64,000 nt of DNA from a virus (taxonomy: Duplodnaviria > Caudoviricetes), in the IMG/VR virus record IMGVR_UViG_3300012665_000316, positions 17,287 to 81,286 of that record; one strand, 5' to 3'. The notes beneath the pieces were generated by a model that did not search any database, was not told the DNA's origin, and saw nothing but the letters and a program-made list of their open reading frames with translations. This document shows positions 16,672 to 61,549 of this stretch, one piece after another; the first letter of the stretch is position 1; each line of letters opens with the position of its first letter. Both the position numbers and the translations under genes were made by a program.

Positions 16672-16674
16672 ATT

Positions 16675-17643: not shown

Positions 17644-17651
17644 TAAGATAA

Positions 17652-18620: not shown

Positions 18621-18642
18621 ATACAACGGAGAATACACAAAC

Positions 18643-19272
18643 ATGGCACAATTTTCGGTTTTTTTAACAGCTCTAGAAAGCAAACTACTAGAGCACACAG
18701 TGGCTAATCCGTCAGACTGGATAGATAATCTAGTCGAATGGAGAGTACGGATTGCTCAAGACGAGTATCTTCCAACAGCAATTGAACAACTCAAAGCCAG
18801 TGGCGCTACGAGTATTCCAGCGAGTCGCGACGCAATAATTTTAGCAGTAGATTTGCCCGCAAAGGATCCTAATTGGACACCGGTTGAGAGAGACGATCCC
18901 ACTGATGATTTAGTTGTAGAATATACATTTGATTTGGAAGACGATGACATTAAAATGTTAGCTTGGATGTATGAAAATCCCCATACACATATTCGAACAT
19001 GGATCACAGAACGTTGTCAGGTTGCTATTAAAGAAAAAGCAGATGATATTTTTAAACAACTATTAGCAGACCCAACCTGGACTGATCCAATTCCAACTGA
19101 TCCGGCTGCTTTAATTGATCTTGTAGAAATAAAAACGGCTGCTCAGCACTTAGCAGAAACTACAGCGGCAATGGCAGTACTACAGGCATCGTTGTCTACA
19201 GATGGCGGCGAGCCATATGTGCCCCCTACTATTCCGTTTATGACTTTTAAGCATCATAACTCAAATACTTAA
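18643..19272 (+). CDS. Two-repeat helical protein, possible fibre-assembly chaperone or accessory
   Basis: Internal duplication (NPSDWIDNLVEWRVRIA.DE...IP / NPHTHIRTWITERCQVA.KE...IP); own ATAAATA box at 18617 and GGAG RBS; directly follows the C1q genes. Confidence 0.45.
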   Translation: MAQFSVFLTALESKLLEHTVANPSDWIDNLVEWRVRIAQDEYLPTAIEQLKASGATSIPASRDAIILAVDLPAKDPNWTPVERDDPTDDLVVEYTFDLEDDDIKMLAWMYENPHTHIRTWITERCQVAIKEKADDIFKQLLADPTWTDPIPTDPAALIDLVEIKTAAQHLAETTAAMAVLQASLSTDGGEPYVPPTIPFMTFKHHNSNT

Positions 19273-19288
19273 AAATTAGTATAGTAAT

Positions 19289-19314
19289 AAAAAAGCACCC
19301 TCGGGTGCTTTTTT
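19289..19314. terminator. Bidirectional intrinsic terminator between the convergent fibre and enzyme operons
   Basis: aaaaaa-gcacc-ctcg-ggtgc-tttttt, with A/T tracts on both sides. Confidence 0.9.
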
Positions 19315-20923
19315 AATCTTTGTTGTTATAGTGTTTCTTTTTTAAGTATTGATAGTGCGTAGGACACTTGTTAGCAACTAGTTCATTTTTTATCTTTTTC
19401 TGAGCCCAATATTGTTGGGTGACAATGTTAAAAATGGGTGTATCATTATTAGAACATAATTTATCATATTTGATTTTTTCTAACGACATTCGATTCACTG
19501 GCAAACTATGATTTCCTACAAATATATCTGGAAATCCTCCATCGTTTGTGCCAAGCTCATGCGATCGTAACATTTTACCAGCAATATCAGATGCTAGTGT
19601 ATGTAGTTCAGACAGGTCCTTATCAATCATACGGCGATCCATTTCTATGTTTTCAGTAACATGTTGCCAGTACGGAGTATCTCTACGCGATGATAATGTA
19701 TAATGACAAGTAACAAAGGTCTTAAAACTCTGCATAGTTAGATTAGCCATATAATTAAACCAATCAACATGCATTTTATTAACTTGCTCGTTATCTAGTG
19801 TTTGGAATAATAAAACTAGCATTTCTTGAACACTAAACAATCCTGTACTTTCTAAAGGTTCTATAAATGCGTAAGACAATCCTACACCTACTACATTTTT
19901 CTCCCAACATTTATCGTGTGTACCGTTTTTAATTTTAACTAATCTAAATTCTAAATTATCCGCACGATTGGGATCATGATATTTCATCTTGTCACTATTT
20001 AAATACTTTTTGTATTCTTGTAGCGCATCTTCTTCGCTGATAAATTTAGTACTGAATACATAACCGCTGCCAATACGATGATATAACGGAATATTCCAAA
20101 CCCATCCGTTATTATATGCTGTACAATTTGTGACATTTTCCATCTCAGTTTCTTTATCACTGTATGGTACATGACAAGTCCAAGCACGGTCGTTAGGTAA
20201 TAAGCTATTAAAACTTTCAAACGGTACGCCCATGGCTTGTTCTAATAACATAGATTTAAATCCAGAACAGTCAATATATAAATCGCCTCTGACTTGTTCG
20301 CCGTTTGTTAAAACAAGATAGTCAATATAACCGTCTTCTTCTTTAACAATATGTTCGATATGTTGTTGAGTATGTTTAACACCGGCTGGGATACAAAATT
20401 TATCTCTTAAAAATTCACCAAATAATGCCGCATCCATATGATATGCCGCATCATTTTTAAAACTATACCCTTCTAGTTTATAGTCAACGCCGTCGCATAT
20501 TTTATTATTGTAAATTAACGGCATTGAGCTATACATACAATCGTAAAAATCATTCCAAGATGTTTCCGGGTATAGTAATTTTTTGTAATACCAATCAGTA
20601 GTACCGTTAATTGTATTTTTTCTGTCTTTTACCCCAAATGGATAATAAAATGACTCGCCTTTCTTGTAAAAATCAGTGAACTTAATAGCTAGTTTATGTG
20701 TGGCATTACAGTACGGCATCCATTCTTCATCCTTTAAATCTAGAAGATGCAAGAATAAATTTAATGTACCTAGTGTTGATTCTCCTACACCTACTGTAGG
20801 TACATCGGGAGATTCCACTAGTTCAAAATTAATGTTGGGGAACTTTTTTGATAGAAGTGCGGCACTCATCCACCCTGCACTACCTCCACCAACTATTACA
20901 ATTTTTTTAATAGGTTGTTTCAT
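19313..20923 (-). CDS. Flavin-dependent tryptophan halogenase family protein (PrnA-like)
   Basis: GGGSAG FAD motif, CNATHKLAIKF (catalytic Lys), WVWNIP, FIEPLESTG. Confidence 0.9.
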   Translation of the reverse strand: MKQPIKKIVIVGGGSAGWMSAALLSKKFPNINFELVESPDVPTVGVGESTLGTLNLFLHLLDLKDEEWMPYCNATHKLAIKFTDFYKKGESFYYPFGVKDRKNTINGTTDWYYKKLLYPETSWNDFYDCMYSSMPLIYNNKICDGVDYKLEGYSFKNDAAYHMDAALFGEFLRDKFCIPAGVKHTQQHIEHIVKEEDGYIDYLVLTNGEQVRGDLYIDCSGFKSMLLEQAMGVPFESFNSLLPNDRAWTCHVPYSDKETEMENVTNCTAYNNGWVWNIPLYHRIGSGYVFSTKFISEEDALQEYKKYLNSDKMKYHDPNRADNLEFRLVKIKNGTHDKCWEKNVVGVGLSYAFIEPLESTGLFSVQEMLVLLFQTLDNEQVNKMHVDWFNYMANLTMQSFKTFVTCHYTLSSRRDTPYWQHVTENIEMDRRMIDKDLSELHTLASDIAGKMLRSHELGTNDGGFPDIFVGNHSLPVNRMSLEKIKYDKLCSNNDTPIFNIVTQQYWAQKKIKNELVANKCPTHYQYLKKKHYNNKD

Positions 20924-22131
20924 GTAGTTTTAAAGTAGTTATAATTCATTTTTTCGTCAATAATTCGTAAATTAAGAGGTGTAAAGAACCATGACCTTCC
21001 TGTTAATAAAGTGCCATTCTTGTGCATTTTTTTATATTCATCGATAGTATTTGCAAATTCTTTACTCTTACTTAATCTTACATTTGCCTTATCTCTAGCA
21101 TATTGCCAAAATTCAGTATTGAAGTTAGTCCCACCGTGATATAAAAACGACAGCATGTCTTCTAGAGATTTTGCTAATTTAGTAAATTCAGCGTTTACAA
21201 AAAATTCATTATATCTTTCATTTTTATTTAAATGATGTAAAAACAGTTCAGCAATTTCAACATAACAAAAAATACTGCTTGCACTCAACGGTTCAAAAAA
21301 TAATGCTCTGTTACCGTTTTTTAATATGCGTTTATCTAAAACTTTTTTAGTATAATATGACTTAAATTTATATTCTTTTACATCAGCTTTAGTTATATTA
21401 GTTGAAAATATAGTGGACATATCATCTAATACTTGTTCTTCGGTACTTATAGAATCATTAAACAAGTAACCGTATGTGTGCCTAGTAGCTAATGGGATAC
21501 CAAAAGTCCAACCGTGTTTTGTTGCGATATGTTCAGTGTGTGTAAATTGACCAGTCATATGTGGTTCTGTATTATATACAAAACATCGGTTAAGCGGCGA
21601 ACAATCGCTTATATTATAATCAGAATAGTCAGATGGAAATCCTCTGCAATCGATAATATAGTCAAATTTTTCAATAGCATTGTTGATAACTACCTGAACG
21701 CACTGAAATTTATTTGTAACGTCTGTTACTTCACCTTCTAAAACTTTAAATTTTTCAGGCCATAATTTTTTAAATCGTTCAAAAGCAAATTCTTTTAACT
21801 TAAAATTATTAAAATGCAACGCATACCCTGCACCAAATACAGGATTGATCCAGCTGTGCTCTCTCCAATTTATATACTTAGTACCAAATTTAAAAGTCCC
21901 GTCAAGTTGATCTAAATCTGTAGTTAGATTAAATCCAGTTCCATTTTCTAATGTTGTAATAAAATTAGGATTAGTGCTTTCGCCTATTCCTAGTATAGGT
22001 GTTGCTGGATCGTAAATAGAAACCACGTCCCATGCATTACTAAGCCACGGGATAATGTGAGAAATAGATACGATTCCGGCTGTGCCGGCTCCTATAACTC
22101 CTAACCGTTTTTTATTTAAATTCGGGCCCAT
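20920..22131 (-). CDS. Short, divergent tryptophan-halogenase-family flavoprotein
   Basis: GAGTAG, GIGEST, TFKFGTKY; WTFGIP and FEPLSAS are altered versions of WxWxIP and FxEPLES. Confidence 0.8.
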   Translation of the reverse strand: MGPNLNKKRLGVIGAGTAGIVSISHIIPWLSNAWDVVSIYDPATPILGIGESTNPNFITTLENGTGFNLTTDLDQLDGTFKFGTKYINWREHSWINPVFGAGYALHFNNFKLKEFAFERFKKLWPEKFKVLEGEVTDVTNKFQCVQVVINNAIEKFDYIIDCRGFPSDYSDYNISDCSPLNRCFVYNTEPHMTGQFTHTEHIATKHGWTFGIPLATRHTYGYLFNDSISTEEQVLDDMSTIFSTNITKADVKEYKFKSYYTKKVLDKRILKNGNRALFFEPLSASSIFCYVEIAELFLHHLNKNERYNEFFVNAEFTKLAKSLEDMLSFLYHGGTNFNTEFWQYARDKANVRLSKSKEFANTIDEYKKMHKNGTLLTGRSWFFTPLNLRIIDEKMNYNYFKTT

Positions 22132-22654
22132 AAATCCATCCTACTATTGTATGTCTAACTCCGCGAGTTACTGGAGTTACACGATGCACCATGTAAGACG
22201 GAAAAATTGTTATAGTGCCTTGTTCTCGAATTTTCTTATCAGTTATAGCAGGCATAAATTCTAAATCACCACCGTCGTATTCTGCAGGATTAGTTAGCTG
22301 TATAGTAAATGATAATTTTCTAACACTATCTCCATCCATAGAATCAGTATGCCACACATAGTGATCTTCTCGATCAGCTGAGTATCTGAATACAAGTGGG
22401 GGATCTTTTTTATTATAACCTTCTAAATGATAACGAAAACTAGACGAATTTGTTAAGAATATTGTTCTAAAAATTTGATCTTCTAGTTGTTCAGATATAC
22501 CTTGGTTGCATATCTGAACACTTCTAAATTGCTTTTGTGTGATAAATTGTCCAAATTTACGAACAGTTCCTTCCACCCATCGAGATGAGTCACGTACAAT
22601 TTCGTTACATTCATCTGGTGAAAGAAGGGGTATTGAAATTGTACGAGACGGCAT
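22112..22654 (-). CDS. 2OG-Fe(II) oxygenase (prolyl-4-hydroxylase/PKHD-like)
   Basis: WHTD...RKLS...YDGGDLEF...FPSYMVHRVTPV.RG.R. Confidence 0.9.
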   Translation of the reverse strand: MPSRTISIPLLSPDECNEIVRDSSRWVEGTVRKFGQFITQKQFRSVQICNQGISEQLEDQIFRTIFLTNSSSFRYHLEGYNKKDPPLVFRYSADREDHYVWHTDSMDGDSVRKLSFTIQLTNPAEYDGGDLEFMPAITDKKIREQGTITIFPSYMVHRVTPVTRGVRHTIVGWIYGPEFK

Positions 22655-24276
22655 TATTCTTTACCGTTATAGATATTTTCTTTAAGATATTGATAGTGTG
22701 ATGGAGCAGATTCCATTAACGAATTAATGTACTCTTTCTTTTGATCCCAGTAGTCTTGAGTTTGACTTGTGTAAAACTCCGGAACTGTACCATGCCTTGA
22801 CTCAATTAACATCTTAACAACTGCCATTTGTGTTGGGTTTACTGGTAATGTATGCATTCCTACTAGAATATCAGGCATGCCACCCATACTTTGATCTGCT
22901 GGCATAGTATGTGTTTGCAATAGCTTAATTGCTAAATCGCCGGCTGCTGTTGGCGGAACCTGATTAAACTTCCGATCAAACATCAACGGATCCATTTCTA
23001 TATTTTCAGTAACATGTTGCCAGTACGGAGTATCTCGACGAGAACTAAACACATAATGATATGTTACAAAATTCTTAAAACTTTCCATAACATAGTTAGC
23101 TATATAGTTGAAGTTATCAACATGAATTTTATTAATCTGTTTGTTGTGCAATGTTTCGCATAGTTTTAGTAATAGTTCTTGAACACTTAATAAACCAGTA
23201 CTTTCTAACGGTTCTACAAATGCATATGATAGGCCTACCCCGACGCAATTTTTAACCCATGCTCGAGTATGAGCCCCGTTTTTAATTTCAATTAATCTAA
23301 ATTCACAAAGTTTACTTCTCATTGGATTATGTACAGTCATTGCATCACTGTCTAAATAATCTTTGTACTCTTGCAATGCATCTTCTTTACTAATAAATTT
23401 ATCGCAAAAAACATAACCACTGCCAATTCTGTTGTATAACGGAATGTTCCACACCCAGCCGTTGTTATGCGCTGTACAGTTTGTAACGTTTTCCATTTCT
23501 ATTTCTTTGATAGAGTACGGAACATGTGTTACCCATGCATGATTGTTGGGCAAATGACTTGAATATGATTCAAACGGTACACCCATGGCTTGTTCTAGTA
23601 GCAACGATCTGAATCCAGTACAGTCAATAAACAAGTCAGCTTCTAGTGTATCACCGTTGTCTAATTTGAGGCCACTGATATAGCCGTCGTCTTCTTTAAT
23701 AACTTCTTCAATGTGTGCTGACACATGTACAACTCCTGCTGGAATACAAAATTTATCTTTTAAAAAATTACCGAATAGGGTAGCATCCATATGATAAGCA
23801 GAATCATTGCGCCAGCTGAAACCTGGAAGTTGACCATCCTTATTATCAAAAATCTTAGTTTGATAAATCATAGGCATTGAACTGTATAGATTTTCATAAA
23901 AATCATTAACGTCCAACTCGGGATTCATAACTTTTTTAACATACCAATCGGTTGCGCCTTGTTGGGTATTTTGTAAATCTTTGACACCGAAAGGATAATA
24001 AAATGTTTCGCCTTTTTTATAAAAATCTCTAAATTTAATAGCTAACTTATATGTAGCATTGCAATACTCCATCCAGTCTTCGTCCTTGAGACCTAATAAT
24101 CCTAGATATTGATTAATAGTGCCTAAGGTAGACTCACCGACACCAATAATTGGTACATCAGGCGACTCAACTAGTGCAATCTCCATGTCGGGAAATTGTT
24201 TTGATAACATGGCTGCACTCATCCAGCCAGAACTGCCACCGCCGGCAATTATAATACGTTTAATAGGTTTTTTCAT
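22654..24276 (-). CDS. Flavin-dependent tryptophan halogenase family protein (PrnA-like)
   Basis: GGGSSG, CNATYKLAIKF, WVWNIP, FVEPLESTG; close paralogue of 19313..20923. Confidence 0.9.
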   Translation of the reverse strand: MKKPIKRIIIAGGGSSGWMSAAMLSKQFPDMEIALVESPDVPIIGVGESTLGTINQYLGLLGLKDEDWMEYCNATYKLAIKFRDFYKKGETFYYPFGVKDLQNTQQGATDWYVKKVMNPELDVNDFYENLYSSMPMIYQTKIFDNKDGQLPGFSWRNDSAYHMDATLFGNFLKDKFCIPAGVVHVSAHIEEVIKEDDGYISGLKLDNGDTLEADLFIDCTGFRSLLLEQAMGVPFESYSSHLPNNHAWVTHVPYSIKEIEMENVTNCTAHNNGWVWNIPLYNRIGSGYVFCDKFISKEDALQEYKDYLDSDAMTVHNPMRSKLCEFRLIEIKNGAHTRAWVKNCVGVGLSYAFVEPLESTGLLSVQELLLKLCETLHNKQINKIHVDNFNYIANYVMESFKNFVTYHYVFSSRRDTPYWQHVTENIEMDPLMFDRKFNQVPPTAAGDLAIKLLQTHTMPADQSMGGMPDILVGMHTLPVNPTQMAVVKMLIESRHGTVPEFYTSQTQDYWDQKKEYINSLMESAPSHYQYLKENIYNGKE

Positions 24277-24301
24277 GCAATGTCCTTGATTGACTTGGTA
24301 A

Positions 24302-24307
24302 TATTTA
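24302..24307 (-). promoter_or_regulatory. Internal late-type promoter (TAAATA) upstream of halogenase 22654..24276
   Basis: Minus strand cTAAATAttaccaagtcaatcAAGGAcattgcATG. Confidence 0.5.
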
Positions 24308-24317
24308 GTTATGTGTT

Positions 24318-24950
24318 TTAGATGTAGGTTACATCTTGACTATCGTCGTTTCTCCAAAGATCCCTATGAAGATTAAACGATATAGAAATTCGAGTATCAT
24401 CTGTTTTATTTTTTTCTACAGAGTGTTGTAGCCAGCCAGGGAATAGTAATAATTTACCCACTGCTGGCTTAATATCACATTGTCTATCAGCTATGTTACC
24501 AAACGGAAATAATTCTTGACGCATCCAGGGTGTAGGATTTGTCATAATAAACATACCATCGTTGCCAGTAGTCTGATAATAGTATGTACCAGAGATATAA
24601 GCATCTTCATGTTGATGCCAATCTTGTCCTTGATCCTTGCTAGTCTTATTGAACCAACTATGTCGTAAAGCAACAGGGACTGGATGTCGAGCTTGTGTCT
24701 GATCAATGTATTTTTTAACGTGATTTTCGATGTATTTTTTTAAATGATTTAGCTCAAAATCTTTAATTGAGTTAGTACGAGCTTTAATATTTGTTTGTAC
24801 CCCGTCTTCCCATCCTGGTGGATTATTAAAATGATCAGTCTGTTCTATTAACGGTAACTTTTTTTTAATCTCGTCTTGTATTAAAAAGATTTCTTGCATT
24901 GTTCCTTGATGTTCGTATATCAATATAGGAAATAGCGATTTAACTGGCAT
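24318..24950 (-). CDS. Putative 2OG-Fe(II) oxygenase (HxH type, TIGR02466-like)
   Basis: WHQH...ISGTYY...LLLFPGWLQHSV...RISISFN. Confidence 0.85.
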   Translation of the reverse strand: MPVKSLFPILIYEHQGTMQEIFLIQDEIKKKLPLIEQTDHFNNPPGWEDGVQTNIKARTNSIKDFELNHLKKYIENHVKKYIDQTQARHPVPVALRHSWFNKTSKDQGQDWHQHEDAYISGTYYYQTTGNDGMFIMTNPTPWMRQELFPFGNIADRQCDIKPAVGKLLLFPGWLQHSVEKNKTDDTRISISFNLHRDLWRNDDSQDVTYI

Positions 24951-24951
24951 A

Positions 24952-25647
24952 TCACAGTCCTTTATCTTTTAAAATTTTTCTACGTTTAAAGTATTGCCCA
25001 TTGAGTGTAAATGGAGTAATTCCAACTTGTTTAATAAATTCAGCGTGTGATACAGTATGCATTGAAATCTTTATATCAGATTCTGACAACGGGACCACAT
25101 GAGCCAATTCTTTACCTGCTGGAATTGTAATATCTTTAGGAAACATAGTTTTAGGAATTAGCAGGTTTACACTAGTAGTATGTTGATATTTGTAATCAAC
25201 TACGCCGTTAACTACAAATGGTTTAAATTCGTCATCGTGCCAGAATGTATTGGTGTAAAGAAAATTAACGCCTGTTTTTTCCTTTATTTTCCACGGACTA
25301 TTTAATTTTACGTGATGAAATCCTTTAAGATAGTCTCCCCACTGTTTAGGATGATGCCCTTCTGCTTCTTCTTCCGGAAACCACTTTAACATACCGCCTT
25401 CAATCCCGATCCAGTATTCTTCCCAACTTTGCAATATAAAGCCAGTTCGATATAGTGTGCTTACACCCGGACATGTTTTCATAGTGCCGCGCATAGGACC
25501 TTGATGTTTAATAGTAGTTGGTAAATTTTTCCAGAAACTAGGAAGCCTTTCCTCTGCATATAAAATAGGAAATAGCGTTTCTACCTCAGGATGGGCAGTA
25601 AAACAATCAAGAACAATTTTTGGTTTTTTAAAAAAGAATGAAAACAT
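24952..25647 (-). CDS. Conserved phage protein with dUTPase-like motifs (paralogue 1, DUF6065-like)
   Basis: KTCPG...KLNSPWKIK...GVVDYKY...IPAGKELAHVVPL. Confidence 0.5.
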   Translation of the reverse strand: MFSFFFKKPKIVLDCFTAHPEVETLFPILYAEERLPSFWKNLPTTIKHQGPMRGTMKTCPGVSTLYRTGFILQSWEEYWIGIEGGMLKWFPEEEAEGHHPKQWGDYLKGFHHVKLNSPWKIKEKTGVNFLYTNTFWHDDEFKPFVVNGVVDYKYQHTTSVNLLIPKTMFPKDITIPAGKELAHVVPLSESDIKISMHTVSHAEFIKQVGITPFTLNGQYFKRRKILKDKGL

Positions 25648-25652
25648 GATTA

Positions 25653-26363
25653 TTACCTATAAGTTTTTTTAGAGTGAAATAATTGAGCATATATCCCTGC
25701 CCAGTAGGTACTAAGACGATACTTATAACTAGACCTAGTCCACTCGTCTTTACTTGAGATATGATTAACAGCCATCTGCCAGTCATCTCGTTTAAACGGA
25801 AAAACTACTACTAAAGGATCCCCTGGGGATATAGTAAATGATTTTTCCTTAATCAAGCTAACAAGGCCGATAGGTTCGTTATGTTGATCTGTATCTACTA
25901 CTCCTGGAAAAATTGAAAATTCTTTTCTAAATCTGTAGTAAGGATCAAACAACATACAACTATAACCAGGCGGTGTTTTAATATGCCATGGTTGATTGAT
26001 TTTAAGGTAGTGATGTTTTTTATCGTCTTCAGCTTTAAATTGCGCCTGATACCACGGATGCTTACCTACATGTTTATCAGTGTGTCGGCATCGATAATCA
26101 AAGTCTGTAATAAATTTTGAATCAATATATTCTTTAACTTGCACTTCGTAGGTTGCACGTATTACATATCCAGTAGTCATGTAATCTAACACTGGCACAC
26201 ATCGTTTGATTGTAGGTGTATGCGGTTTAGTATACGGTTCAATTTCTGGAATTTCAATAGGTGTATCTTTATACCATTCTGGAATTACTTTGCCAGCAGG
26301 CACCGGTGGAAATAGCTCGATTGCTTCTAAATCACTAGTAGAAAATGTTATTAAGTTGGTCAT
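25653..26363 (-). CDS. Conserved phage protein with dUTPase-like motifs (paralogue 2, DUF6065-like)
   Basis: KRCVPVLD...PWHIKTPPGYSC...PGVVDTD...PGDPLVVVFPFKR. Confidence 0.55.
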   Translation of the reverse strand: MTNLITFSTSDLEAIELFPPVPAGKVIPEWYKDTPIEIPEIEPYTKPHTPTIKRCVPVLDYMTTGYVIRATYEVQVKEYIDSKFITDFDYRCRHTDKHVGKHPWYQAQFKAEDDKKHHYLKINQPWHIKTPPGYSCMLFDPYYRFRKEFSIFPGVVDTDQHNEPIGLVSLIKEKSFTISPGDPLVVVFPFKRDDWQMAVNHISSKDEWTRSSYKYRLSTYWAGIYAQLFHSKKTYR

Positions 26364-27097
26364 TTAAATTGTTTTTTAGAATGAAATAGTTTTTTATAAG
26401 CATTAAACAAATAGTATTTTGATTTGTCTAATATAGTATTTGCAGTAAATTCGGATTCCCAGTCGTCTCGCTTAAATGGTATAATCTGTACTAATGGATC
26501 ACCACAAAAGAATCGAACTTCACTATTGGATTTAGTCAAGTACCCTACCACTGGAATTTTTTGATTAAATTTATCAGTGTCAATGATAGCAGGTAGAATG
26601 CTAAATTCGTTTTGAAATAAGTAGTAAGGCTGTATCACCAAACAACTATAACCAGGTGGGGTTTGTATAGACCACTCAGAATTAAATCTAAAATAATTTC
26701 CAAGATGTTTCTTTTCTATTGACCGCATTGGACATGTATTTTCAGCATAAATTCCAACCGCATTATTAGGATGAAGACCCTGCATTTCATCAGTCTTGTT
26801 AGAATCATTTATCTTATTATTCACAGTATTAGCAGTTAAAATATTCATTTTAGGAACAAAATTTTCAATCTTTTCACTTACTCTAACTTCGTAAGTTGCC
26901 TTGAGAATATATCCTGCTGTTAAAAAATCTTCTACAGGAATACAAGCTCGAATACTTTTTAATGCATTTTCATCAAAACTATAAGTATCTTTGGCCGCAG
27001 CCATATTAGCATACCATTCGGGTAAACAATCTCTGGCAGGCACCGGCTTCCAGTGTTCTAACGCAGTCTTATCGTCTATGTTAAATTTAATCTTCAT
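26360..27097 (-). CDS. Conserved phage protein with dUTPase-like motifs (paralogue 3, DUF6065-like)
   Basis: RACIPVED...WSIQTPPGYSC...PAIIDTD...GDPLVQIIPFKR. Confidence 0.55.
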   Translation of the reverse strand: MKIKFNIDDKTALEHWKPVPARDCLPEWYANMAAAKDTYSFDENALKSIRACIPVEDFLTAGYILKATYEVRVSEKIENFVPKMNILTANTVNNKINDSNKTDEMQGLHPNNAVGIYAENTCPMRSIEKKHLGNYFRFNSEWSIQTPPGYSCLVIQPYYLFQNEFSILPAIIDTDKFNQKIPVVGYLTKSNSEVRFFCGDPLVQIIPFKRDDWESEFTANTILDKSKYYLFNAYKKLFHSKKQFK

Positions 27098-27696
27098 CTA
27101 TTAATTTTGTCTTCGTCTATTTCTATTAACCATGTGGTTAATATATATTTGCTTTTATCCCCGATAGGAGGATTTCCCCTGTGAGTATGAGTCCAATCAG
27201 CTGGCCATACTAACAGTTTATTTTTCTTGGGAACGATTCTAGTATTTTGATATAAAAATTCTGTTTCGCCTGCGTCGTCTATATCGTTCATGTAAAGCTG
27301 TATTACAATTCTTCTTTTAGAATCTTCCCCAAGTGCTTCATAATGCCACTGATGAAAGCCGCCTCCTGGAACAATCTTTTTCATCTTGATCTGTTCTACT
27401 TTATAAGACCTATCTTGGAGTATGCTAAACTTGTCAGTATAGATGGGCATTATTTTTTGCCACAACACTTCGAGAAAATGATTTACATATTGTGGATGTA
27501 GTGTGCTAATCACTTTTGGATCCAGCATATAAAGCTGTTCGTCATCCTTCCAGTGTTTAGGAACAGTATCTTGTTGGTGCAATGATAAGTTGGCTATTTT
27601 ATCGTAGTAGTTGATAACATCTTGAAAGTATGAGTTTTGAAAGTAGTTTTCAAATATTCCAATAAATCCCTGAAATTCATATTTTTCAAAATTCAT
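27094..27696 (-). CDS. 2OG-Fe(II) oxygenase
   Basis: FHQWHYE...YMND...GETEF...WPADWTHTHRGNPP...KYILTTW. Confidence 0.85.
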   Translation of the reverse strand: MNFEKYEFQGFIGIFENYFQNSYFQDVINYYDKIANLSLHQQDTVPKHWKDDEQLYMLDPKVISTLHPQYVNHFLEVLWQKIMPIYTDKFSILQDRSYKVEQIKMKKIVPGGGFHQWHYEALGEDSKRRIVIQLYMNDIDDAGETEFLYQNTRIVPKKNKLLVWPADWTHTHRGNPPIGDKSKYILTTWLIEIDEDKINR

Positions 27697-28358
27697 TCTA
27701 TTTCTAACCTATAATTACCAGCTAACGAAATTCTCACATCATCCGTACTATAAAACGGATATACTTGATGCTGTAACTCCGATGGAAATATACAAATCTT
27801 GCCTTCAAGTGTTTTGTCAACAGGAATGGGATAGTTATTAATTTTTCCAAGAGCATCGACGTACACAAACTCGAAATTAGCAGTACGATTTTTAATCAAG
27901 TCTGGGTTAGCAATATTATCTTTTTCCTCGGCCATAGTGTATGGAATAGTAGTCCATATCACAAAACTATAAATTCCGCTATGGTTGTGTAACGGCAAGA
28001 ACTCACCGCGCCGTTGAAGATTTACCCATACTCGTTCGAGAGATAATTTAATTTTTTTGTTTTCAGCGTTTGCTACAAAATTAAATAATCTGTCAAAATA
28101 TTGATATTTGTTTTCGTAGATACCTAATAATTTTAGTATTTCTTTATCTATCAACGAAACTAACTCGTCTGATAATTTATAATTTGTTGAATAGCCTTGT
28201 TGTTTTTTATGATAGAGTCTTAATAAATCCTTAGACTCATTTAGATCTGTCGAAAAGTCCGTAAGGAACTTATTTGTTTCTTGTTTTATTCGTTGGAATA
28301 TAAACGGATTAAACGTATCCAAATATAGACCTACGTTAGGAAGATCGTAAAAGCTCAT
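27693..28358 (-). CDS. Putative 2OG-Fe(II) oxygenase (HxH type)
   Basis: LPLHNHSGIYSFVIW...IFPSELQHQVYPF...RISLAGN; paralogue of 60895..61545. Confidence 0.8.
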   Translation of the reverse strand: MSFYDLPNVGLYLDTFNPFIFQRIKQETNKFLTDFSTDLNESKDLLRLYHKKQQGYSTNYKLSDELVSLIDKEILKLLGIYENKYQYFDRLFNFVANAENKKIKLSLERVWVNLQRRGEFLPLHNHSGIYSFVIWTTIPYTMAEEKDNIANPDLIKNRTANFEFVYVDALGKINNYPIPVDKTLEGKICIFPSELQHQVYPFYSTDDVRISLAGNYRLEIE

Positions 28359-28395
28359 ACTACTAATTATCTAGAATCAGTAGCGTCTTTTGCAA

Positions 28396-29925
28396 TTATG
28401 ATTGTTTAGCAGTTTGTTTTAAAAAGTTAATGAAGTCGACATAACTTAAATTATCCCGTAACAAATTATCTACGGTTTTTTGATACCCAGCAATAACTGC
28501 ATTCATGTCAGTTAACCCTAAGATAGGAACGGTATTTCCAGAAAATATTTTTGAGGAAGTTTCTGGTGCAATGTGTCCGGTTCCGGCTAGTACATAGCTC
28601 CACAGTCCCATGTCAGGTGCTCCAAATGAGATATCAAGATCTCGGTTTGAAGGCATTTGCGTCTTACACATGGTTAGTAAATTGTCAACAAATTCTGTTT
28701 TGGTAGCGCCTGAGTTAACATATTTCCAAAACTCACTATCAGTTCTTCCACCCATATAGTGAGCAATTAGAAATTCTTTAGTAGTGTCGTATAATTTAGC
28801 AGTGCGACGATTATAACTATTTCTACTGCCGGGATTTAATGTATCGTCTAAATTAGATTTTAAAAATTCAAGAACAAATGATAACAGTTGTGCAATTGTA
28901 GTGTGTATGCTAGTAGCTTCTAGTGGCTCTGCAAATGCGGCAGCAAGGCCAACAGCTAGGCAATTTTTATCCCAGGCATTCTCAAGTCTGCCAGTATCAA
29001 ATTTTAATACTCGTATTGGATCAATCGGCCTGCCTAGTGTAGTTTCTATTTCTGCCTGTGCTTGATCTGCATTGATAAAATTATCATCAAATACATATCC
29101 GCAACCTTTGCGTTGTTGATTTGGTATTTGCCACATCCACCCGGACGATTGCGCCCAGGCAGTAGTATATAATTCTGGACACTCATTTTCTTCATAGGGT
29201 AATAAAAACGGCATTGCTGAGTTTACAGGTAAATTTTTTCGATAACTTACCCATTTAGTTCCTAATTTTTTTACAAGCACCTGTCGGAATCCACTGGCAT
29301 CAACAAAAAAGTCACCCTTAACTACGGTTCCGGTCTTTAACAATACTGATGTTATATTTCCATTTAGAGAATCTAAATTTACATCTAATACTTCGTCGTC
29401 CATAACAGTTACCTTATGAGTCTTCATAGCAACTTTTTTAAAATACTTGCCGACGTTGTGTGCATCAAAATGTAATGCAGTTCCTACATTATCAAAAGAT
29501 AGTGTTTTTTTATTAAAACTAGAAACGTTACGTTCTATTTTTTGTCCTAGTACTGAACTCAGATGTACATTTTTTGGATCAGTACTATGATAGTGAGCAA
29601 ATATATAATCAACTACACTTTCTGTGCTAGGAGTCCCGCCAATTGGACCCATATAACTTTCACCTACTGTTTTCCAGTCTTTGTGATGAATACCATACTT
29701 TAATGTAGCCCCAGTTTCTTGCAAAAATTCTAATAGATCACATCCAAAGTCCCACATTTCATTTTTTAAAATTGATGTGAGCAATCCGGTTGATCCTTCT
29801 CCAGCACCGATAATACCTATAGCAGAAGATTCAATTACTGTAATAGTATGTTCCGGTTTAACTTTACTAATTAACAATGCGGCTAACCATCCAGCAGTTC
29901 CGCCTCCAACAACAACTATGTTCAT
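28396..29925 (-). CDS. Flavin-dependent tryptophan halogenase family protein
   Basis: GGGTAG, GAGEGS, ATLKYGI, WMWQIP, FAEPLEATS. Confidence 0.9.
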   Translation of the reverse strand: MNIVVVGGGTAGWLAALLISKVKPEHTITVIESSAIGIIGAGEGSTGLLTSILKNEMWDFGCDLLEFLQETGATLKYGIHHKDWKTVGESYMGPIGGTPSTESVVDYIFAHYHSTDPKNVHLSSVLGQKIERNVSSFNKKTLSFDNVGTALHFDAHNVGKYFKKVAMKTHKVTVMDDEVLDVNLDSLNGNITSVLLKTGTVVKGDFFVDASGFRQVLVKKLGTKWVSYRKNLPVNSAMPFLLPYEENECPELYTTAWAQSSGWMWQIPNQQRKGCGYVFDDNFINADQAQAEIETTLGRPIDPIRVLKFDTGRLENAWDKNCLAVGLAAAFAEPLEATSIHTTIAQLLSFVLEFLKSNLDDTLNPGSRNSYNRRTAKLYDTTKEFLIAHYMGGRTDSEFWKYVNSGATKTEFVDNLLTMCKTQMPSNRDLDISFGAPDMGLWSYVLAGTGHIAPETSSKIFSGNTVPILGLTDMNAVIAGYQKTVDNLLRDNLSYVDFINFLKQTAKQS

Positions 29926-30558
29926 TTAATATCCTTCTCTGTTGTCAAACGTTAACATTACGTTCATAGCAACAACTACTCGTAAATTGCCTGTAGTATG
30001 CGCAGGTGTATGGTGATCAAGCCATGCAGGGAAAAATAATAAATCACCTTCCTCTACCATCATTTGTTTTTTATCAGGCCAATACATTTCAGGCAATTCG
30101 TTTTTATTTTTTGTTGGAATAACACTTTTCATCATTCTAGCGTTAGGATTTAAAAATACAGTTCCTGAATTTTCGTTGTCTAGGGTTACGTAGTGTACCG
30201 CAGACCATTGTATTGTTTTTGGACCACCAGTATGATCATGCGGAAATTGAGAAGTAGAATTAGTCATCATTCCGTACCAGCAGGTTACTTTAAAAGTCCA
30301 CCCTTTAGAAAAATCAATACCGGTAAATTCTAAAAATTCTCGAATATCATCTTCGTAAAATTTTGACAACATCATCCACGGTATCTTGTGAGCCCCTGGA
30401 ACGTAATCTGTATAGGCATTAGTCACAGTGTCATTAACGCCATTCCTAACATATTGCGGATACACATTATCCATAAGATACTTTTTAATCTTATCGTGAT
30501 TGCGCACTTTTAACTTGACCAAGTTAACCGGAAACAGCGGGACAGGAGTTATTGACAT
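29926..30558 (-). CDS. Putative 2OG-Fe(II) oxygenase (HxH type, TIGR02466-like)
   Basis: FPHDH...WSAVHY...LLFFPAWLDHH...RVVVAMN. Confidence 0.8.
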   Translation of the reverse strand: MSITPVPLFPVNLVKLKVRNHDKIKKYLMDNVYPQYVRNGVNDTVTNAYTDYVPGAHKIPWMMLSKFYEDDIREFLEFTGIDFSKGWTFKVTCWYGMMTNSTSQFPHDHTGGPKTIQWSAVHYVTLDNENSGTVFLNPNARMMKSVIPTKNKNELPEMYWPDKKQMMVEEGDLLFFPAWLDHHTPAHTTGNLRVVVAMNVMLTFDNREGY

Positions 30559-30559
30559 G

Positions 30560-31279
30560 TCAGTCTACCCATTTGGAAAAATTATCAATGATCGGCTGTT
30601 CAAACTCATATCGATCAATAAAGAATAGTAGTGCAGTACGTGGTTCGGATACTGTTACCTTAAAAGTGTTTGGTCTGTGCCATAGATTAGAATCATAAGC
30701 AATTAATCTATTATAAACATTGCCCATTCTTATAGTTTCTTCAAAGTGAGAATGATTGTTTTTTAAATCGCGTTTGTATTCGTCTGTTACTACGCTAGTA
30801 GTGTTAAACTCTTTCCTAGATTTAAAGTCAGGTATGGCAAAATTTTCTTCTCCTTTCTTTAAAAAGATAGAAGTGCCGCTGTCAAAATTAGTTTCGTTGG
30901 GATTTAAATACACTAGCCCGGCTAGTGTAACATCGTCATTATGTATCCATCCAATGTTTGCTTCATTGTCGGAATATAATTCATTGATATGAAAACTTAT
31001 GTGTATTACAAATTGTGAAATTCCAGGAAATACTTCTCGTGCAAGTTTTTTAGCAAAAAATACTGCAAATTCTTTAGTTTCTGGATCAAAAGATTCTAGT
31101 AGATTAATAGTACGTTTTCCGGGATATCTCTCTGATTTTTCGTATGTTTGTTTTTTAGACAGTGCTAAAACTTTATCAGGGTTATTGAAGAAATTATTTT
31201 TACAAATAACTGATCCTGCTAGCGGGTGAGTTGTTTTGTCTAAATTGTAAACAGGCATTTTGTTTACTGCTTGCATCAT
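30560..31279 (-). CDS. Putative 2OG-Fe(II) oxygenase (DUF6445-like)
   Basis: NFFNNPD...YPGKRT...GWIHND...LAGLVYL..GTS...NRLIAYDS.LWH. Confidence 0.7.
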   Translation of the reverse strand: MMQAVNKMPVYNLDKTTHPLAGSVICKNNFFNNPDKVLALSKKQTYEKSERYPGKRTINLLESFDPETKEFAVFFAKKLAREVFPGISQFVIHISFHINELYSDNEANIGWIHNDDVTLAGLVYLNPNETNFDSGTSIFLKKGEENFAIPDFKSRKEFNTTSVVTDEYKRDLKNNHSHFEETIRMGNVYNRLIAYDSNLWHRPNTFKVTVSEPRTALLFFIDRYEFEQPIIDNFSKWVD

Positions 31280-31833
31280 ACCATTCCTTTTGGATTACGT
31301 TGCAAATCAAATGCATGTAGGTAGTTTGGGCCAGATATAGTTACATAGTGTAAGAAAACTTGAATACACTCATTTCCTTGAAACGAGTCACGCCAGTGGT
31401 AAGATTTAGCACCTTTGTAAACTACAGCATCTCCAGGGTTTAATGAAACAGCGGCTGTAGTGCCATCGGGTCTAGTGAAATGTATAGGCCATTTATCTCC
31501 TGCAAGATTCACACTTACACTAATTTCACAAGCCTCAGCATCGATATGAGATTTTAACTCGGCGCCTCGTTTATACCATCTACCATAGCAATAGGTAGGA
31601 TATAATCTTTCCCCCACTAGGTCATTCATATAAAAAATCTTTGAAATTAGCAATTGATTTACTATAGGACTATTATACAACGCCGGCGAGCCAGCAACCT
31701 GTGGATCTGCTTTAGCAAAATTACTAATACATTGTTTTTTAAATTCCGAAGCAACAAAATTGGCTGCTACGGGATGTAAAAAATCTTCCACAACAAAATA
31801 GTTGTCTTTTTGTAAATCAGAATTCATTATCAA
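31276..31833 (-). CDS. 2OG-Fe(II) oxygenase
   Basis: LKSHID...CEISVSVNL...PGDAVVYKG...HWRD...QVFLHY. Confidence 0.8.
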   Translation of the reverse strand: MIMNSDLQKDNYFVVEDFLHPVAANFVASEFKKQCISNFAKADPQVAGSPALYNSPIVNQLLISKIFYMNDLVGERLYPTYCYGRWYKRGAELKSHIDAEACEISVSVNLAGDKWPIHFTRPDGTTAAVSLNPGDAVVYKGAKSYHWRDSFQGNECIQVFLHYVTISGPNYLHAFDLQRNPKGMV

Positions 31834-32126
31834 TCTGGATCAATCACACACCAAACGTCAAGTTCAGGCAAACAGTGATATATCTCTCCGCCTACAACTA
31901 CTTTTGAACCAGCTGCCGAATGCATAAGTACTCGATCGCCAACTTTAACAGTCATAGGTATAAGAACTGCCGTTTTTTCAGAATACTTTCCTGGCCCGAC
32001 TGCTACAACAGTTCCACGGGTTGACACTTCTGCCGCCGCATCTGGTATAACAATGCCACCTCTAGATAATGTATCTGGGCTATCTTTTTTAACTAAAATT
32101 CTATCGTGTACTGGCCGCAAAATCAT
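31830..32126 (-). CDS. groES: GroES (Cpn10) co-chaperonin
   Basis: LRPVHDRILVK...GGIVIPD...GTVVAVGPG...VKVGDRVL; AGGAG RBS. Confidence 0.92.
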   Translation of the reverse strand: MILRPVHDRILVKKDSPDTLSRGGIVIPDAAAEVSTRGTVVAVGPGKYSEKTAVLIPMTVKVGDRVLMHSAAGSKVVVGGEIYHCLPELDVWCVIDPD

Positions 32127-32173
32127 AAAAAAACTCCTGTATTAATTCTAAGATATTTATACAGGAGTTTTTT
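32127..32173 (-). promoter_or_regulatory. 15-bp hairpin sequestering the groES RBS, with an exact T4 late promoter TATAAATA (32154-32161) running into the loop and a 3' U-tract
   Basis: Minus strand: AAAAAACTCCTGTAT-aaatatcttagaatta-ATACAGGAGTTTTTT-T-ATG. Confidence 0.85.
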
Positions 32174-32200: not shown

Positions 32201-32416
32201 CTAGCCCATAACTGTGATCAATTCAATTTTTCCAACCCAGTCAGTAGTACTCAGTTTTCGAATTCTATTTAAATCGCCTGCAAAAGCATCGGCTTTTTGT
32301 TGGGCAAGTTTCTTATTTGTGGTATGACGTCCTTGCAAACTATCTTGATCCATTATGCGTTGTGTTTGATTTAGCGTTCGACTAAACGCCATAATAACAT
32401 ATATTTGCTGGCTCAT
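32201..32416 (-). CDS. Hypothetical protein (71 aa)
   Basis: ORF begins 1 nt after the stop of the preceding minus-strand gene; no motif recognised. Confidence 0.55.
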   Translation of the reverse strand: MSQQIYVIMAFSRTLNQTQRIMDQDSLQGRHTTNKKLAQQKADAFAGDLNRIRKLSTTDWVGKIELITVMG

Positions 32417-32417
32417 A

Positions 32418-33605
32418 TTATTTCACCATGATGTATGAAGGCAACCCACGACCGTAGTTTGCTCCTGAAGGAACTCCCCAGGCATCACTCAAACCATTCC
32501 CGTCTTGATAATCATCCCAGCCATATATGTTAGTAGTAAGGCCATTGGTAGTTGCTTGATCGGCCCAGCTAAGATCACCAGTCATACCAAAATTGTTACT
32601 GTTATTTGACGTTAGTGGATATGTAGTACTAAGATTATTTTTAGATAATACTTGAACTGGATAATAGCTACCTCCTGTGTTTATCTGCGATCCTATATTA
32701 CCATTATATAATGCTATAACGGAAAAAGCAGTGTTATCGTTTGTAGGTATTACATTCCATGCGGGCCTGACCCTGACATCAAAGCCGCTTAACCACGGCA
32801 GTGTTTGATGATAGTTGTCAAATACACGAGTGTACACTTGAGAGTCGGGGATATATGTCGGAGTATTAAACGTACCGTAAGAATATGTGTAAATATTTTT
32901 CCAGTCATTTGAAGCAAACGCACACCAGGCAATTTTGCTAATAGGCATTCCTAGCACATTGATTGAAAAATTATTAGATGAGCTATAACTATTAGCACCG
33001 CTTGACCCTACATACGCACTACGACCTGTTAGTCTAGGTATGTGAGCAGAGCTATAAACAGGATTAACTGCAGAGTTATTGGCAACTATCATCCACCCAC
33101 CGCCGTCCCACGCCGGATCCATGATGCAATAAACTTGTTGGGCCGGTGCCATCGGACTTGGTTTAATCCAATATACGCCATCTGTAATTGTACCAGTAGT
33201 AGCTTTAATCTGAGCGGCACTTGATCCTGCGGTCAATCGAGTAAGACCGTCCGGCACAGTATCAGCAGGTACCTCTGGGGTAAATTCAGCATTACCCCAA
33301 CCCATAACTTGTACATTGACATCGCTGACGTTACAAGTAGCTACTACCCAAGAACCTGCTCCTAACATGATTTGTGTTCTATCAAACGATGCCTTTGGAA
33401 TAACAGTAGTACCCCATTCGATGTAATCACGATCTAGTGGATCTGGATCCTCTCCGTCTGCAATAGCTATAGCTACAGAAGCTACGCTTGTTCCAACATT
33501 ACAAAAATTAACTGTTACAATTTGAAAATCGTCTGACGTATTTCTATATACCGGCTGAGTTAACCCTGGTAAAAGTCGTCTAGCCGCCATTAATCCTGAT
33601 TTCAT
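32418..33605 (-). CDS. Virion-associated protein: small beta module fused to a fibrinogen-like (FReD) domain
   Basis: TDGVYWIKP...QVYCIMD...GGGWMIVA is the fibrinogen-C N-terminal signature; N-terminus resembles 14774..15094; ATAAATA box at 33636-33642 (-). Confidence 0.65.
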   Translation of the reverse strand: MKSGLMAARRLLPGLTQPVYRNTSDDFQIVTVNFCNVGTSVASVAIAIADGEDPDPLDRDYIEWGTTVIPKASFDRTQIMLGAGSWVVATCNVSDVNVQVMGWGNAEFTPEVPADTVPDGLTRLTAGSSAAQIKATTGTITDGVYWIKPSPMAPAQQVYCIMDPAWDGGGWMIVANNSAVNPVYSSAHIPRLTGRSAYVGSSGANSYSSSNNFSINVLGMPISKIAWCAFASNDWKNIYTYSYGTFNTPTYIPDSQVYTRVFDNYHQTLPWLSGFDVRVRPAWNVIPTNDNTAFSVIALYNGNIGSQINTGGSYYPVQVLSKNNLSTTYPLTSNNSNNFGMTGDLSWADQATTNGLTTNIYGWDDYQDGNGLSDAWGVPSGANYGRGLPSYIMVK

Positions 33606-33676
33606 AAATATTCCTTATATCACACTAGTTAATGATATTTATGCGTTATCTTGGTAACTTATTTGGTTTTAAAGTT

Positions 33677-36935: not shown

Positions 36936-36939
36936 AATG

Positions 36940-36961
36940 ATATTTATCGTAAGATAAATAT
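36940..36961. promoter_or_regulatory. Palindromic back-to-back pair of late promoters driving gp14-like (-) and gp13-like (+) genes
   Basis: aTATTTATC-gtaa-GATAAATAt perfect inverted repeat; each arm is an outward-facing ATAAATA. Confidence 0.8.
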
Positions 36962-36976
36962 GAGTGGAGAACTAAT

Positions 36977-61545: not shown

Positions 61546-61549
61546 TTAA

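Follow-up and report, generated by a model that had tools for sequence, protein, structure and literature searches.

In a viral genome fragment, we analyzed a 12.8-kb cassette of 15 minus-strand open reading frames (ORFs), running from 32126 down to 19313 of a 64,000-nt stretch (hereafter the window), itself part of the 81,286-bp IMG/VR record IMGVR_UViG_3300012665_000316. The cassette encodes a GroES co-chaperonin, seven 2-oxoglutarate (2OG)-Fe(II) oxygenases, four flavoproteins of the tryptophan halogenase family and three DUF6065 paralogues with a dUTPase fold, and it converges on receptor-binding fibre genes. Our tentative reading is that of a late accessory module acting on, or together with, these fibres, either by tailoring their proteins or in their assembly. 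This reading builds on the conserved position of the cassette, its late-type boxes, the protein-hydroxylase-like neighbours of g2, g7 and g13, the open site of VirX1-type halogenases, the lack of a scaffold enzyme, carrier or reductase, and the association of DUF6065 genes with fibre genes. That last link, which extends across many unrelated viruses, is new evidence provided here, and so are the putative late boxes that head the cluster in this phage and in three cyanophage genera.

A fibre-adjacent cassette of oxygenases, halogenases and DUF6065 proteins

ORF calls and junction distances agree with the original prediction, made from the sequence alone, of 15 co-directional and tightly joined genes. 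Six junctions are ATGA-type 4-nt overlaps, others lie at -20, -1, 0, +1, +1 and +5 nt, and two gaps measure 37 and 41 nt. The profile and structure searches proposed at that stage assigned families to all cassette genes, and Pfam, PHROG, motif and model searches together return the predicted content of GroES, seven oxygenases, four halogenases and three paralogues. The genes (g1 to g15) and their flanking features are as follows.

32127-32173 (-): hairpin with TATAAATA and the groES Shine-Dalgarno sequence (sequence, RNA fold)
31830-32126 (-): g1, GroES/Cpn10 co-chaperonin, 98 aa (PF00166, 89.2 bits)
31276-31833 (-): g2, 2OG-Fe(II) oxygenase of the Syn9 gp54 family (phrog_2954, invariant motif, AlphaFold2 [AF2] model)
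30560-31279 (-): g3, DUF6445 oxygenase of the Syn9 gp52 family, HxD...H (PF20043, 36 bits)
29926-30558 (-): g4, 2OG-FeII_Oxy_5/TIGR02466-like oxygenase, HxH...H (Pfam, triad)
28396-29925 (-): g5, flavin-dependent halogenase of a non-VirX1 clade, 509 aa (PF04820, 318 bits)
27693-28358 (-): g6, 2OG-FeII_Oxy_5 oxygenase, HxH...H (Pfam)
27094-27696 (-): g7, 2OG-FeII_Oxy_3 oxygenase, prolyl-4-hydroxylase-like, HxE...H (Pfam; PDB 6IUQ)
24952-27097 (-): g8, g9 and g10, DUF6065/phrog_7084 paralogues with a dUTPase fold (PHROG; Pfam for g8; model for g9)
24952-25647 (-): g10 alone (phrog_7084)
24318-24950 (-): g11, 2OG-FeII_Oxy_5/TIGR02466 oxygenase, HxH...H (TIGR02466, 78 bits, above cut-off)
24277-24317 (-): intergenic DNA with a CTAAATA late-type box at 24302-24308 (sequence, conservation)
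22654-24276 (-): g12, VirX1-type flavin-dependent halogenase, 540 aa (PF04820, 373 bits; 6QGM)
22112-22654 (-): g13, 2OG-FeII_Oxy_3 oxygenase, PKHD/PiuC/YbiX-like, HxD...H (Pfam)
20920-22131 (-): g14, short divergent halogenase paralogue, 403 aa (PF04820, 103 bits in two pieces)
19313-20923 (-): g15, second VirX1-type halogenase (PF04820, 365 bits; 63% to g12)
19288-19315 (both strands): bidirectional intrinsic terminator (12-bp stem, flanking A and T runs)
15727-19272 (+): convergent fibre genes, three C1q-tipped paralogues and a 209-aa acidic protein (PF00386 on the first paralogue; tail-fibre PHROGs)

The position of the cassette is conserved. IMG/VR scans with the DUF6065 profile and with g12 recovered 7 and 27 contigs of this lineage, which thus comprises at least 27 IMG/VR contigs and has no close cultured relative; identity to the window ranges from 87% down to 41% for DUF6065 and from 95% down to 59% for the halogenase. 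All contigs show the same order, with neck gene gp15, a Nudix gene, GroES and the cassette, followed by the convergent 209-aa gene, three C1q fibres and a giant fibre. Synteny with the fibre genes, a check put forward with the original prediction, therefore holds, the two adjoining in at least 27 related contigs. Within the cassette, a core order of DUF6445, Oxy_5, Oxy_5, three DUF6065, Oxy_5 and the VirX1-type halogenase is stable down to about 41% identity, around which copy numbers range from 1 to 4 for halogenases, 5 to 11 for oxygenases and 3 to 4 for DUF6065. GroES is the first cassette gene in relatives L004, L005, L006 and L021 as well. In the window, g1 aligns to PF00166 nearly full length (residues 3-95 on profile positions 2-93 of 93), as a Cpn10 protein does.

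A metal triad can be read in all seven oxygenases, as expected of the 2OG-Fe(II) superfamily, whose members carry it and a basic 2OG-binding residue on a double-stranded beta-helix (DSBH) fold. Read from sequence, the triads are HxD in g2, g3 and g13, HxE in g7 and HxH in g4, g6 and g11, and together with Pfam they give the subtypes that had been claimed (HxD, HxE, HxH and DUF6445-like). Six of the seven have Pfam matches above cut-off. The exception, g2, can be assigned to the 2OG-Fe(II) oxygenases from its predicted structure: 28 homologues share H94, D96, H144 and R146 without exception, and an AF2 model (pLDDT 93) has a DSBH whose top PDB neighbours are prolyl hydroxylases, namely Pseudomonas PPHD with EF-Tu (the best, TM 0.71), Dictyostelium PhyA, PHD2 and the collagen prolyl 4-hydroxylase (P4H) of a Chlorella virus. 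The count of seven oxygenases is thus right, given the invariant HxD...H..R of g2 and its modeled DSBH fold. By phmmer, g2 matches Syn9 gp54 and g3 matches Syn9 gp52 (2e-14), whose DUF6445/gp52 family has been classed among the 2OG-Fe(II) dioxygenases (2OGFeDO; PMC2938197). Among the others, g7 matches the P4H of PDB 6IUQ (6e-07), and g13 matches PKHD/PiuC and YbiX-like proteins.

Two PHROG labels, "ferrochelatase" for g2 and "minor coat protein" for g3, were dropped, both proteins being 2OG oxygenases. In public annotation, "minor coat protein" on Syn9 gp46 and gp52 and "ferrochelatase" on gp54 also sit on 2OG oxygenases (phrog_1644, phrog_2954), and these labels are likely propagated misannotations. 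At least two further 2OG oxygenases lie among replication genes at 58358-62143 (+), where the original prediction counted three; those starting at 58358 and 60895 match phrog_81, and g6 has a paralogue in the gene at 60895-61545, with which it shares 35% identity across 219 aa.

The four predicted flavoproteins of the Trp halogenase family all match PF04820 (318, 373, 103 and 365 bits for g5, g12, g14 and g15), and judged by sequence they fall in three clades. The original prediction overlooked that two of them, g12 and g15, are homologues of the characterized iodinase VirX1. Over its full length g12 matches VirX1 (6QGM, E 1.3e-117), with the catalytic lysine, WxWxIP and EPLES all kept, and g15 is 63% identical to g12. 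The best PDB matches of g5 are bacterial Trp halogenases (6e-56), ahead of VirX1 (3e-41), and g5 shares 28% identity with g12. The GxGxxG motif for FAD binding reads GGGTAG in g5, GGGSSG in g12, GAGTAG in g14 and GGGSAG in g15. WxWxIP is present as WMWQIP in g5 and WVWNIP in g12 and g15, and is broken in g14 (WTFGIP). The catalytic lysine, K79 of PrnA and VirX1, is aligned in g12 (to VirX1) and in g14 (to PrnA); EPLE occurs in g5, g12 and g15, whereas g14 reads EPLS and is without an equivalent of PrnA E346. This last gene, about 110-140 aa shorter than the other halogenases, is found in some relatives only. VirX1 itself has a large and accessible active site and halogenates many small aromatics in vitro, while its natural substrate and gene cluster are unknown (PMC8407142).

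The cassette had been said to begin at an exact late promoter, and TATAAATA does stand at 32154-32161 (-), 28 nt before the groES ATG. This is one of only two exact copies in the 64 kb, against 9 expected, a depletion of about 4.5-fold. ATAAATA, too, is depleted, by about 2.3-fold (13 copies where about 30 would be expected). Ten of these 13 fall within the intergenic DNA that makes up about 3% of the window, at 6-35 nt upstream of same-strand starts, mostly those of fibre, neck, sheath and tube genes. Depletion combined with survivors near starts suggests selection against stray late promoters, and the placement of ATAAATA is that expected of a functional T4-type late promoter. The box is known as a late one from T4. 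Late transcription of the cassette is thereby supported, as judged from promoter boxes: it shows the sequence hallmarks of a T4-type late unit, a box upstream and a motif specific to structural genes. In Syn9, S-RIM44 and S-CREM1, the small head gene of the cluster has a late-type box 25-30 nt upstream, so that box positions here and in three cyanophage genera lend sequence support to the late timing originally proposed. Papers on the P-HM2 and field transcriptomes do not mention the cassette genes.

Two internal late boxes had also been predicted, one of which stands. CTAAATA at 24302 lies 26 nt before g12, and four relatives keep it, with [ACT]TAAATA at -27 to -31 in L004, L005, L006 and L021 (ATAAATA in L005). 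The 28364 site, TAGATAAT, is conserved and does not match the late-promoter motif. At the other end, the predicted terminator common to the cassette and the fibre operon is found as a bidirectional 12-bp stem at 19288-19315.

With 14 bp, a U-run and a folding energy of -22.3 kcal/mol (z -3.5), the hairpin before groES is terminator-like. TATAAATA is found in its 5' arm and loop, and the groES Shine-Dalgarno AGGAG in its 3' arm. A read-through transcript would terminate there or have its groES ribosome-binding site masked, and a late start in the loop would free that site. Relatives L004 and L006 carry a plain TATAAATA box after Nudix and no such hairpin, which therefore probably arose with a two-gene insertion just upstream. 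This insertion, at 32201-33605 (-) between Nudix and groES, comprises a 395-aa fibre-like gene (phrog_11338 at its N terminus, ATAAATA at 33636) and a 71-aa gene; both are specific to the window and absent from all related contigs examined.

The original prediction spoke of marine T4-like phages. Neither a marine nor a cyanophage origin is shown, and the terminase large subunit (TerL) points instead to a jumbo T4-like lineage: it is closest not to the terminases of Kyanoviridae but to those of PA5oct (54% identity), Phosso and Vibrio 2.275.O, all jumbo phages. CheckV estimates the record at 22% completeness. Megablast found nothing matching the cassette among cultured phages, in a collection from which the record itself is possibly masked. 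The remainder of the window carries a T4-like neck, sheath, tube and terminase module, including a tail sheath gene at 38882-42178 (+) with a 1098-aa product, then gp32, UvsX, UvsY and a helicase. Between divergent gp14-like and gp13-like neck genes, at 36933-36979, two ATAAATA boxes stand back to back (36941 minus, 36954 plus).

DUF6065 proteins have a dUTPase fold and accompany fibre genes

The three paralogues g8, g9 and g10 match phrog_7084 (1e-35, 1e-43 and 1e-17). In addition, g8 scores 27.9 bits against PF19541 (DUF6065; cut-off 26.6), which 29 of 54 homologues match. They have diverged widely from one another (34% identity between g8 and g9, 25% between g9 and g10). They had been described as dUTPase-motif paralogues, and the fold is borne out by a model of g9 built from a 54-sequence alignment (pLDDT 89, pTM 0.83). 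In an exhaustive structural search this model recovers more than 10 dUTPases at Z 10-12.4, with African swine fever virus (ASFV) dUTPase highest at 12.4. The dCTP deaminases follow at Z 6.4-7.3, and no unrelated fold reaches 5; Foldseek alone gives a marginal dUTPase match (E about 1e-3). A profile search of the PDB aligns V-D-T-D and G-D-P-L-V to motifs III and IV of the Chlorella virus dUTPase, at an E value of only 1.8. Enzymatic trimeric dUTPases are another matter, as motif V is missing, the arginine and glutamine of motif IV are not kept and the sequence match is not significant.

Both g8 and g9 keep the motifs of their own family, an invariant cysteine, TPPGYSC, DTD and PFKRD-W. In subfamily alignments, TPPGYSC, DTD and FKRDDW are gone from the g10 group, although every relative keeps the orthologue. 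One possibility is that g10 serves a hetero-oligomer as a subunit without catalysis, and g8, g9 and g10 could conceivably build a pseudo-symmetric heterotrimer. The lone copies of cyanophages (Syn9 gp43, for example) are closest to g10. A kinship between DUF6065 and SapC, a protein found in bacterial halogenase/TonB clusters, was considered and rejected, none of the 54 members matching SapC at E <= 1.

DUF6065 is a nearly all-viral family (its atlas clusters are 85-100% viral), and outside the cassette its genes often neighbour fibre genes. About a quarter of the assessable loci have a fibre gene, of at least four types, no more than two genes upstream. When the genes upstream of DUF6065 in viral contigs are reduced to 111 non-redundant neighbours, "tail fiber assembly" is the PHROG found most often (12 members), and several tail-fibre families contribute 3-4 each. 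Clustering and re-scanning further identified fibre-like proteins with fn3 and Gly_rich_2 domains immediately 5' of DUF6065 at about 14 loci. Counting tail-fibre proteins as well, about 20 loci, with at least four fibre types, have such a gene directly 5'. In haloarchaeal myoviruses, DUF6065 sits at the boundary between the replication and the adhesin/fibre modules. A mini-module of tail fibre, 150-aa gene, DUF6065, oxygenase and gp54-like oxygenase occurs in five more loci. More widely, DUF6065 recurs with a pair of 2OG oxygenases behind it, of which the second is gp54-like, in L055, L067, L072, L096 and L101 and also in L059, L074, L092 and L093, often with the tail-fibre and 150-aa genes 5'. 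The proximity of DUF6065 to fibre genes is well above the expectation for a random phage gene, with the limit that the loci are interrelated and the counts not independent.

A scan of cellular contigs for DUF6065 returned mostly short, viral-looking contigs of metagenome-assembled genomes (MAGs). Only one hit, in a Devosia sp. MAG, is clearly within a large cellular contig (553 kb; L091 7995-8720). There, DUF6065 belongs to a P2-like prophage and overlaps the stop of a fibre gene, in the order Tail_P2_I, DUF4815, PTR fibre, DUF6065, followed by the sheath, tube and tape-measure genes; oxygenases and halogenases are absent nearby. We take this position to be the slot of the P2 fibre-assembly gene G. 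P2 gpG and T4 gp38 are encoded by fibre assembly or adhesin genes placed 3' of a fibre gene.

A possible role in fibre tailoring or assembly and the competing explanations

How could these proteins act together? In the fibre-linked reading, T4-type late promoters before groES and g12 would switch the genes on while virion parts form, and GroES would aid folding with host GroEL. The DUF6065 proteins, trimer-type by their dUTPase fold, would be partners of the fibres, whether tip subunits, adaptors or chaperones of their assembly. The seven oxygenases would hydroxylate protein side chains: g2, g7, g13 and g3 are PHD/P4H/PKHD-like (PHD, prolyl hydroxylase domain) or belong to families seen with such enzymes, and g4, g6 and g11 are of the three-histidine TIGR02466 type. 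VirX1-type halogenases, with their unusually open site, could halogenate exposed aromatic residues, using FADH2 from a host flavin reductase. As had been predicted, no flavin reductase (PF01613) was found in the 81-kb record, itself a fragment about 22% complete. The convergent fibre genes are candidate partners or substrates. The gene content, folds, catalytic motifs, promoter and terminator, synteny and DUF6065-fibre association are direct observations; that expression is late and, even more, what the substrate is, we infer from them. A more specific version, in which the fibres are both halogenated and hydroxylated during late morphogenesis and DUF6065 trimers are adaptors that present the tips to VirX1-type halogenases and 2OG hydroxylases, is doubtful. 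The C1q tips had been described as rich in Trp, His and Asn; counted over whole fibre proteins, these residues are only mildly enriched (W 1.9-2.5%, H 2.8-2.9%, N 7-8%). Collagen hydroxylation was discarded for this phage, since the neighbouring fibres have no Gly-X-Y runs. There is a precedent for an oxygenase travelling with virions, an Ofd1-like 2OG oxygenase having been detected by mass spectrometry in CsCl-purified S-SCSM2R virions (PMC12801897).

Several observations weigh against a role at the fibres. Fibre adjacency could reflect insertion tolerance, as fibre and accessory genes often share variable regions; the copy numbers of cassette genes vary widely, and the sampled loci are interrelated, so that their counts are not independent events. 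The neighbouring fibre proteins all lack the collagen-like runs that a prolyl hydroxylase might be expected to modify. Oxygenases also occur elsewhere in the window among replication genes, including the g6 paralogue, and the modeled g2 has small-molecule enzymes (SnoN, AsqJ and EctD) and also AlkB among its structural neighbours. The dUTPase fold modeled for DUF6065 is that of nucleotide enzymes, and in other lineages the gene follows DNA ligase (6 loci) or DnaB (4 loci) or lies near thymidylate synthase. In S-MbCM6, a related halogenase is found among psbA and hli genes. Finally, we know of no modified fibre residue or other product reported for any phage.

Part of this evidence would fit a small-molecule pathway, in which tandem enzymes would hydroxylate and halogenate a free amino acid or host metabolite, the organohalogen being released at lysis or acting in the cell. 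Such a pathway was proposed by Iyer et al. (2010), drawing on cephamycin-type pathways and on bacterial clusters of halogenase, JmjC-2OGFeDO (gp52-like), SapC and TonB genes (PMC2938197). The cassette oxygenases are distant members of several families and not recent duplicates, which fits a multi-step pathway, and the resemblance of g2 to SnoN, AsqJ and EctD, the in vitro activity of VirX1 on many small aromatics (PMC8407142) and the use of free tryptophan by all characterized relatives of g5 point the same way. The model thus explains the oxygenase diversity and the halogenase chemistry, but not the genomic context. A metabolic pathway would not usually have a structural-gene-type late promoter or a constant place between neck and fibres, gene content that varies among close relatives is a poor fit to an ordered pathway, and DUF6065 is found alone after fibre genes. 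Nor does the cassette contain a scaffold enzyme, carrier, transporter or precursor gene. In agreement with the original prediction, which saw no non-ribosomal peptide synthetase (NRPS) or polyketide synthase (PKS), the Pfam scan found in the cassette no domain of an NRPS, PKS or ribosomally synthesized and post-translationally modified peptide (RiPP) scaffold enzyme or precursor, although a short precursor ORF could escape it, and no carrier protein (PP-binding domain) was found in the 81-kb record. We therefore see a small-molecule role as possible but rather unlikely.

Do the genes need a common function at all? The site between neck and fibres might be a tolerant, hyperplastic insertion site in which redox genes duplicate and accumulate, each with a separate role. 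The strongly varying copy numbers, the window's own insertion of the 395-aa and 71-aa genes and the similar oxygenases scattered elsewhere in the window would all be accounted for. However, the VirX1-type halogenase, DUF6065, gp52-like, gp54-like and Oxy_5 genes co-occur both in Kyanoviridae and in the PA5oct-like clade, and the core order is kept to about 41% identity with tight translational coupling, which makes this explanation unlikely.

Less probable again is an action on host proteins or physiology, whereby PHD/P4H-like enzymes would hit EF-Tu, ribosomal or regulatory proteins, or 2OG would be drained, tuning the dying cell for late protein synthesis. The nearest structure to g2 is indeed an EF-Tu prolyl hydroxylase, and g13 resembles YbiX/PiuC; manipulation of 2OG and nitrogen status was proposed for cyanophage oxygenases by Sullivan et al. 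(2010) (PMC3037559). The 2OG-draining idea, however, is built on cyanobacterial NtcA, and the phage studied here is by TerL not a cyanophage, while the halogenases, DUF6065 and the conserved fibre adjacency are left unexplained.

Modification of nucleotides or DNA, with dUTPase-fold proteins handling a pyrimidine nucleotide and oxygenases and halogenases modifying bases before or after packaging, is improbable. The fold (Z 12.4) and the weak motif III/IV-like alignment to the Chlorella virus dUTPase (E 1.8 only) would suit it, as would Nudix and dNMP kinase genes near the cassette, the HRTV-11 DUF6065 gene adjoining thymidylate synthase, DNA polymerase and a nucleotide kinase, the ligase and DnaB neighbours in other contigs, and the fact that 2OG oxygenases include the base modifiers TET/JBP and AlkB. 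Against it, no oxygenase of the seven matches the TET/JBP or AlkB families, motif V is absent and the motif IV Arg and Gln are lost, g10 and the cyanophage copies are without the family motifs, late timing suits modification of precursors poorly, the haloviral DUF6065 lies exactly at the fibre-module boundary, and we know of no halogenase that acts on nucleotides.

The fibre-linked reading matters for a common class of genes. Few accessory genes are as widespread in marine T4-like phages as 2OG oxygenases and "PrnA-like" halogenases. To our knowledge, neither they nor VirX1, the sole characterized viral halogenase, have a known natural substrate. One isolate carries 24 oxygenase genes (PMC9602691). 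Finding the same module in an unrelated jumbo lineage, anchored at the fibres and apparently headed by a late promoter, makes a 15-year-old question testable in cultured phages, and it gives a fibre-adjacent identity to the dUTPase-fold member. If fibres are tailored, host-range determinants would include enzymatic marks that are invisible in sequence. If fibres are halogenated, they would be the first halogenated virion protein, and VirX1 and many cyanophage 2OG oxygenases would have a natural role. The value of the finding is this testable role, not a new kind of system.

Comparison with known systems

The original prediction overlooked that both this type of cluster and the dUTPase-fold protein within it had appeared in print in 2010, interpreted there as a source of secondary metabolites. 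Iyer, Abhiman, de Souza and Aravind (2010) described a Syn9 cluster with 10 dioxygenases, 2 halogenases and a dUTPase-fold Cys protein, and proposed that it makes halogenated, hydroxylated metabolites derived from amino acids (PMC2938197). Sullivan et al. (2010) listed PrnA, a "ferrochelatase-domain" protein and oxygenases as sporadic cyanophage genes and suggested 2OG/nitrogen signalling (PMC3037559). In our survey of 76 halogenase loci, an oxygenase is recognizable in 59 and DUF6065 in 34. The clusters of Syn9 (gp41-gp54), S-RIM44 and S-CREM1 contain the VirX1-type halogenase, DUF6065, Oxy_5, gp52-like and gp54-like genes and lie directly 3' of fibre, structural or collagen-like genes. In HTVC008M the halogenase is between terS and terL with an oxygenase upstream, and in P-SSM2 it is beside fibre-assembly genes.

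Several components have closer counterparts individually. The flavin-dependent iodinase VirX1 of cyanophage Syn10 (PDB 6QGM) resembles g12 from end to end, with g5 and g14 in other clades. The prolyl hydroxylases PBCV-1 vCPH, Bacillus anthracis P4H and Pseudomonas PPHD are the nearest neighbours of g2 and g7 and share their DSBH fold and HxD/E...H triad, but at an identity of only 12-16%, and the fibres adjoining here are without collagen-like repeats. DUF6065 resembles the trimeric dUTPase/dCTP deaminase superfamily in its fold and its motif III-like V-D-T-D. It differs from dUTPases in an N-terminal extension of about 60 aa with the invariant Cys and in its setting, most loci lying among fibres and oxygenases and not in nucleotide metabolism. 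With P2 gpG and T4 gp38 it shares the position 3' of a fibre gene, in the Devosia prophage and in many contigs, but no kinship of sequence or fold, and in the cassette it is embedded among oxygenases on the strand opposite to the fibres.

The whole cassette compares best with the Syn9-type cluster, as it unites distinct tandem 2OGFeDO families, Trp halogenases and a dUTPase-fold Cys protein. The clusters of Syn9, S-RIM44 and S-CREM1 are alike in their tandem, distant oxygenases, their dUTPase-fold Cys protein, their fibre adjacency and their late-type box, and contain one or two VirX1-type halogenases. The cassette differs from them in its jumbo lineage, in fibres that are convergent and not co-directional, in its four halogenases of three clades, in its three DUF6065 genes (one degenerate) and in having GroES first. 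A JmjC/MINA member (gp49-like) is not seen by Pfam, none of the 15 proteins matching JmjC or cupin_4/8 at E <= 0.01. Altogether, the cluster type has been known since 2010, and the cassette described here is an enlarged version of it in another phage lineage.

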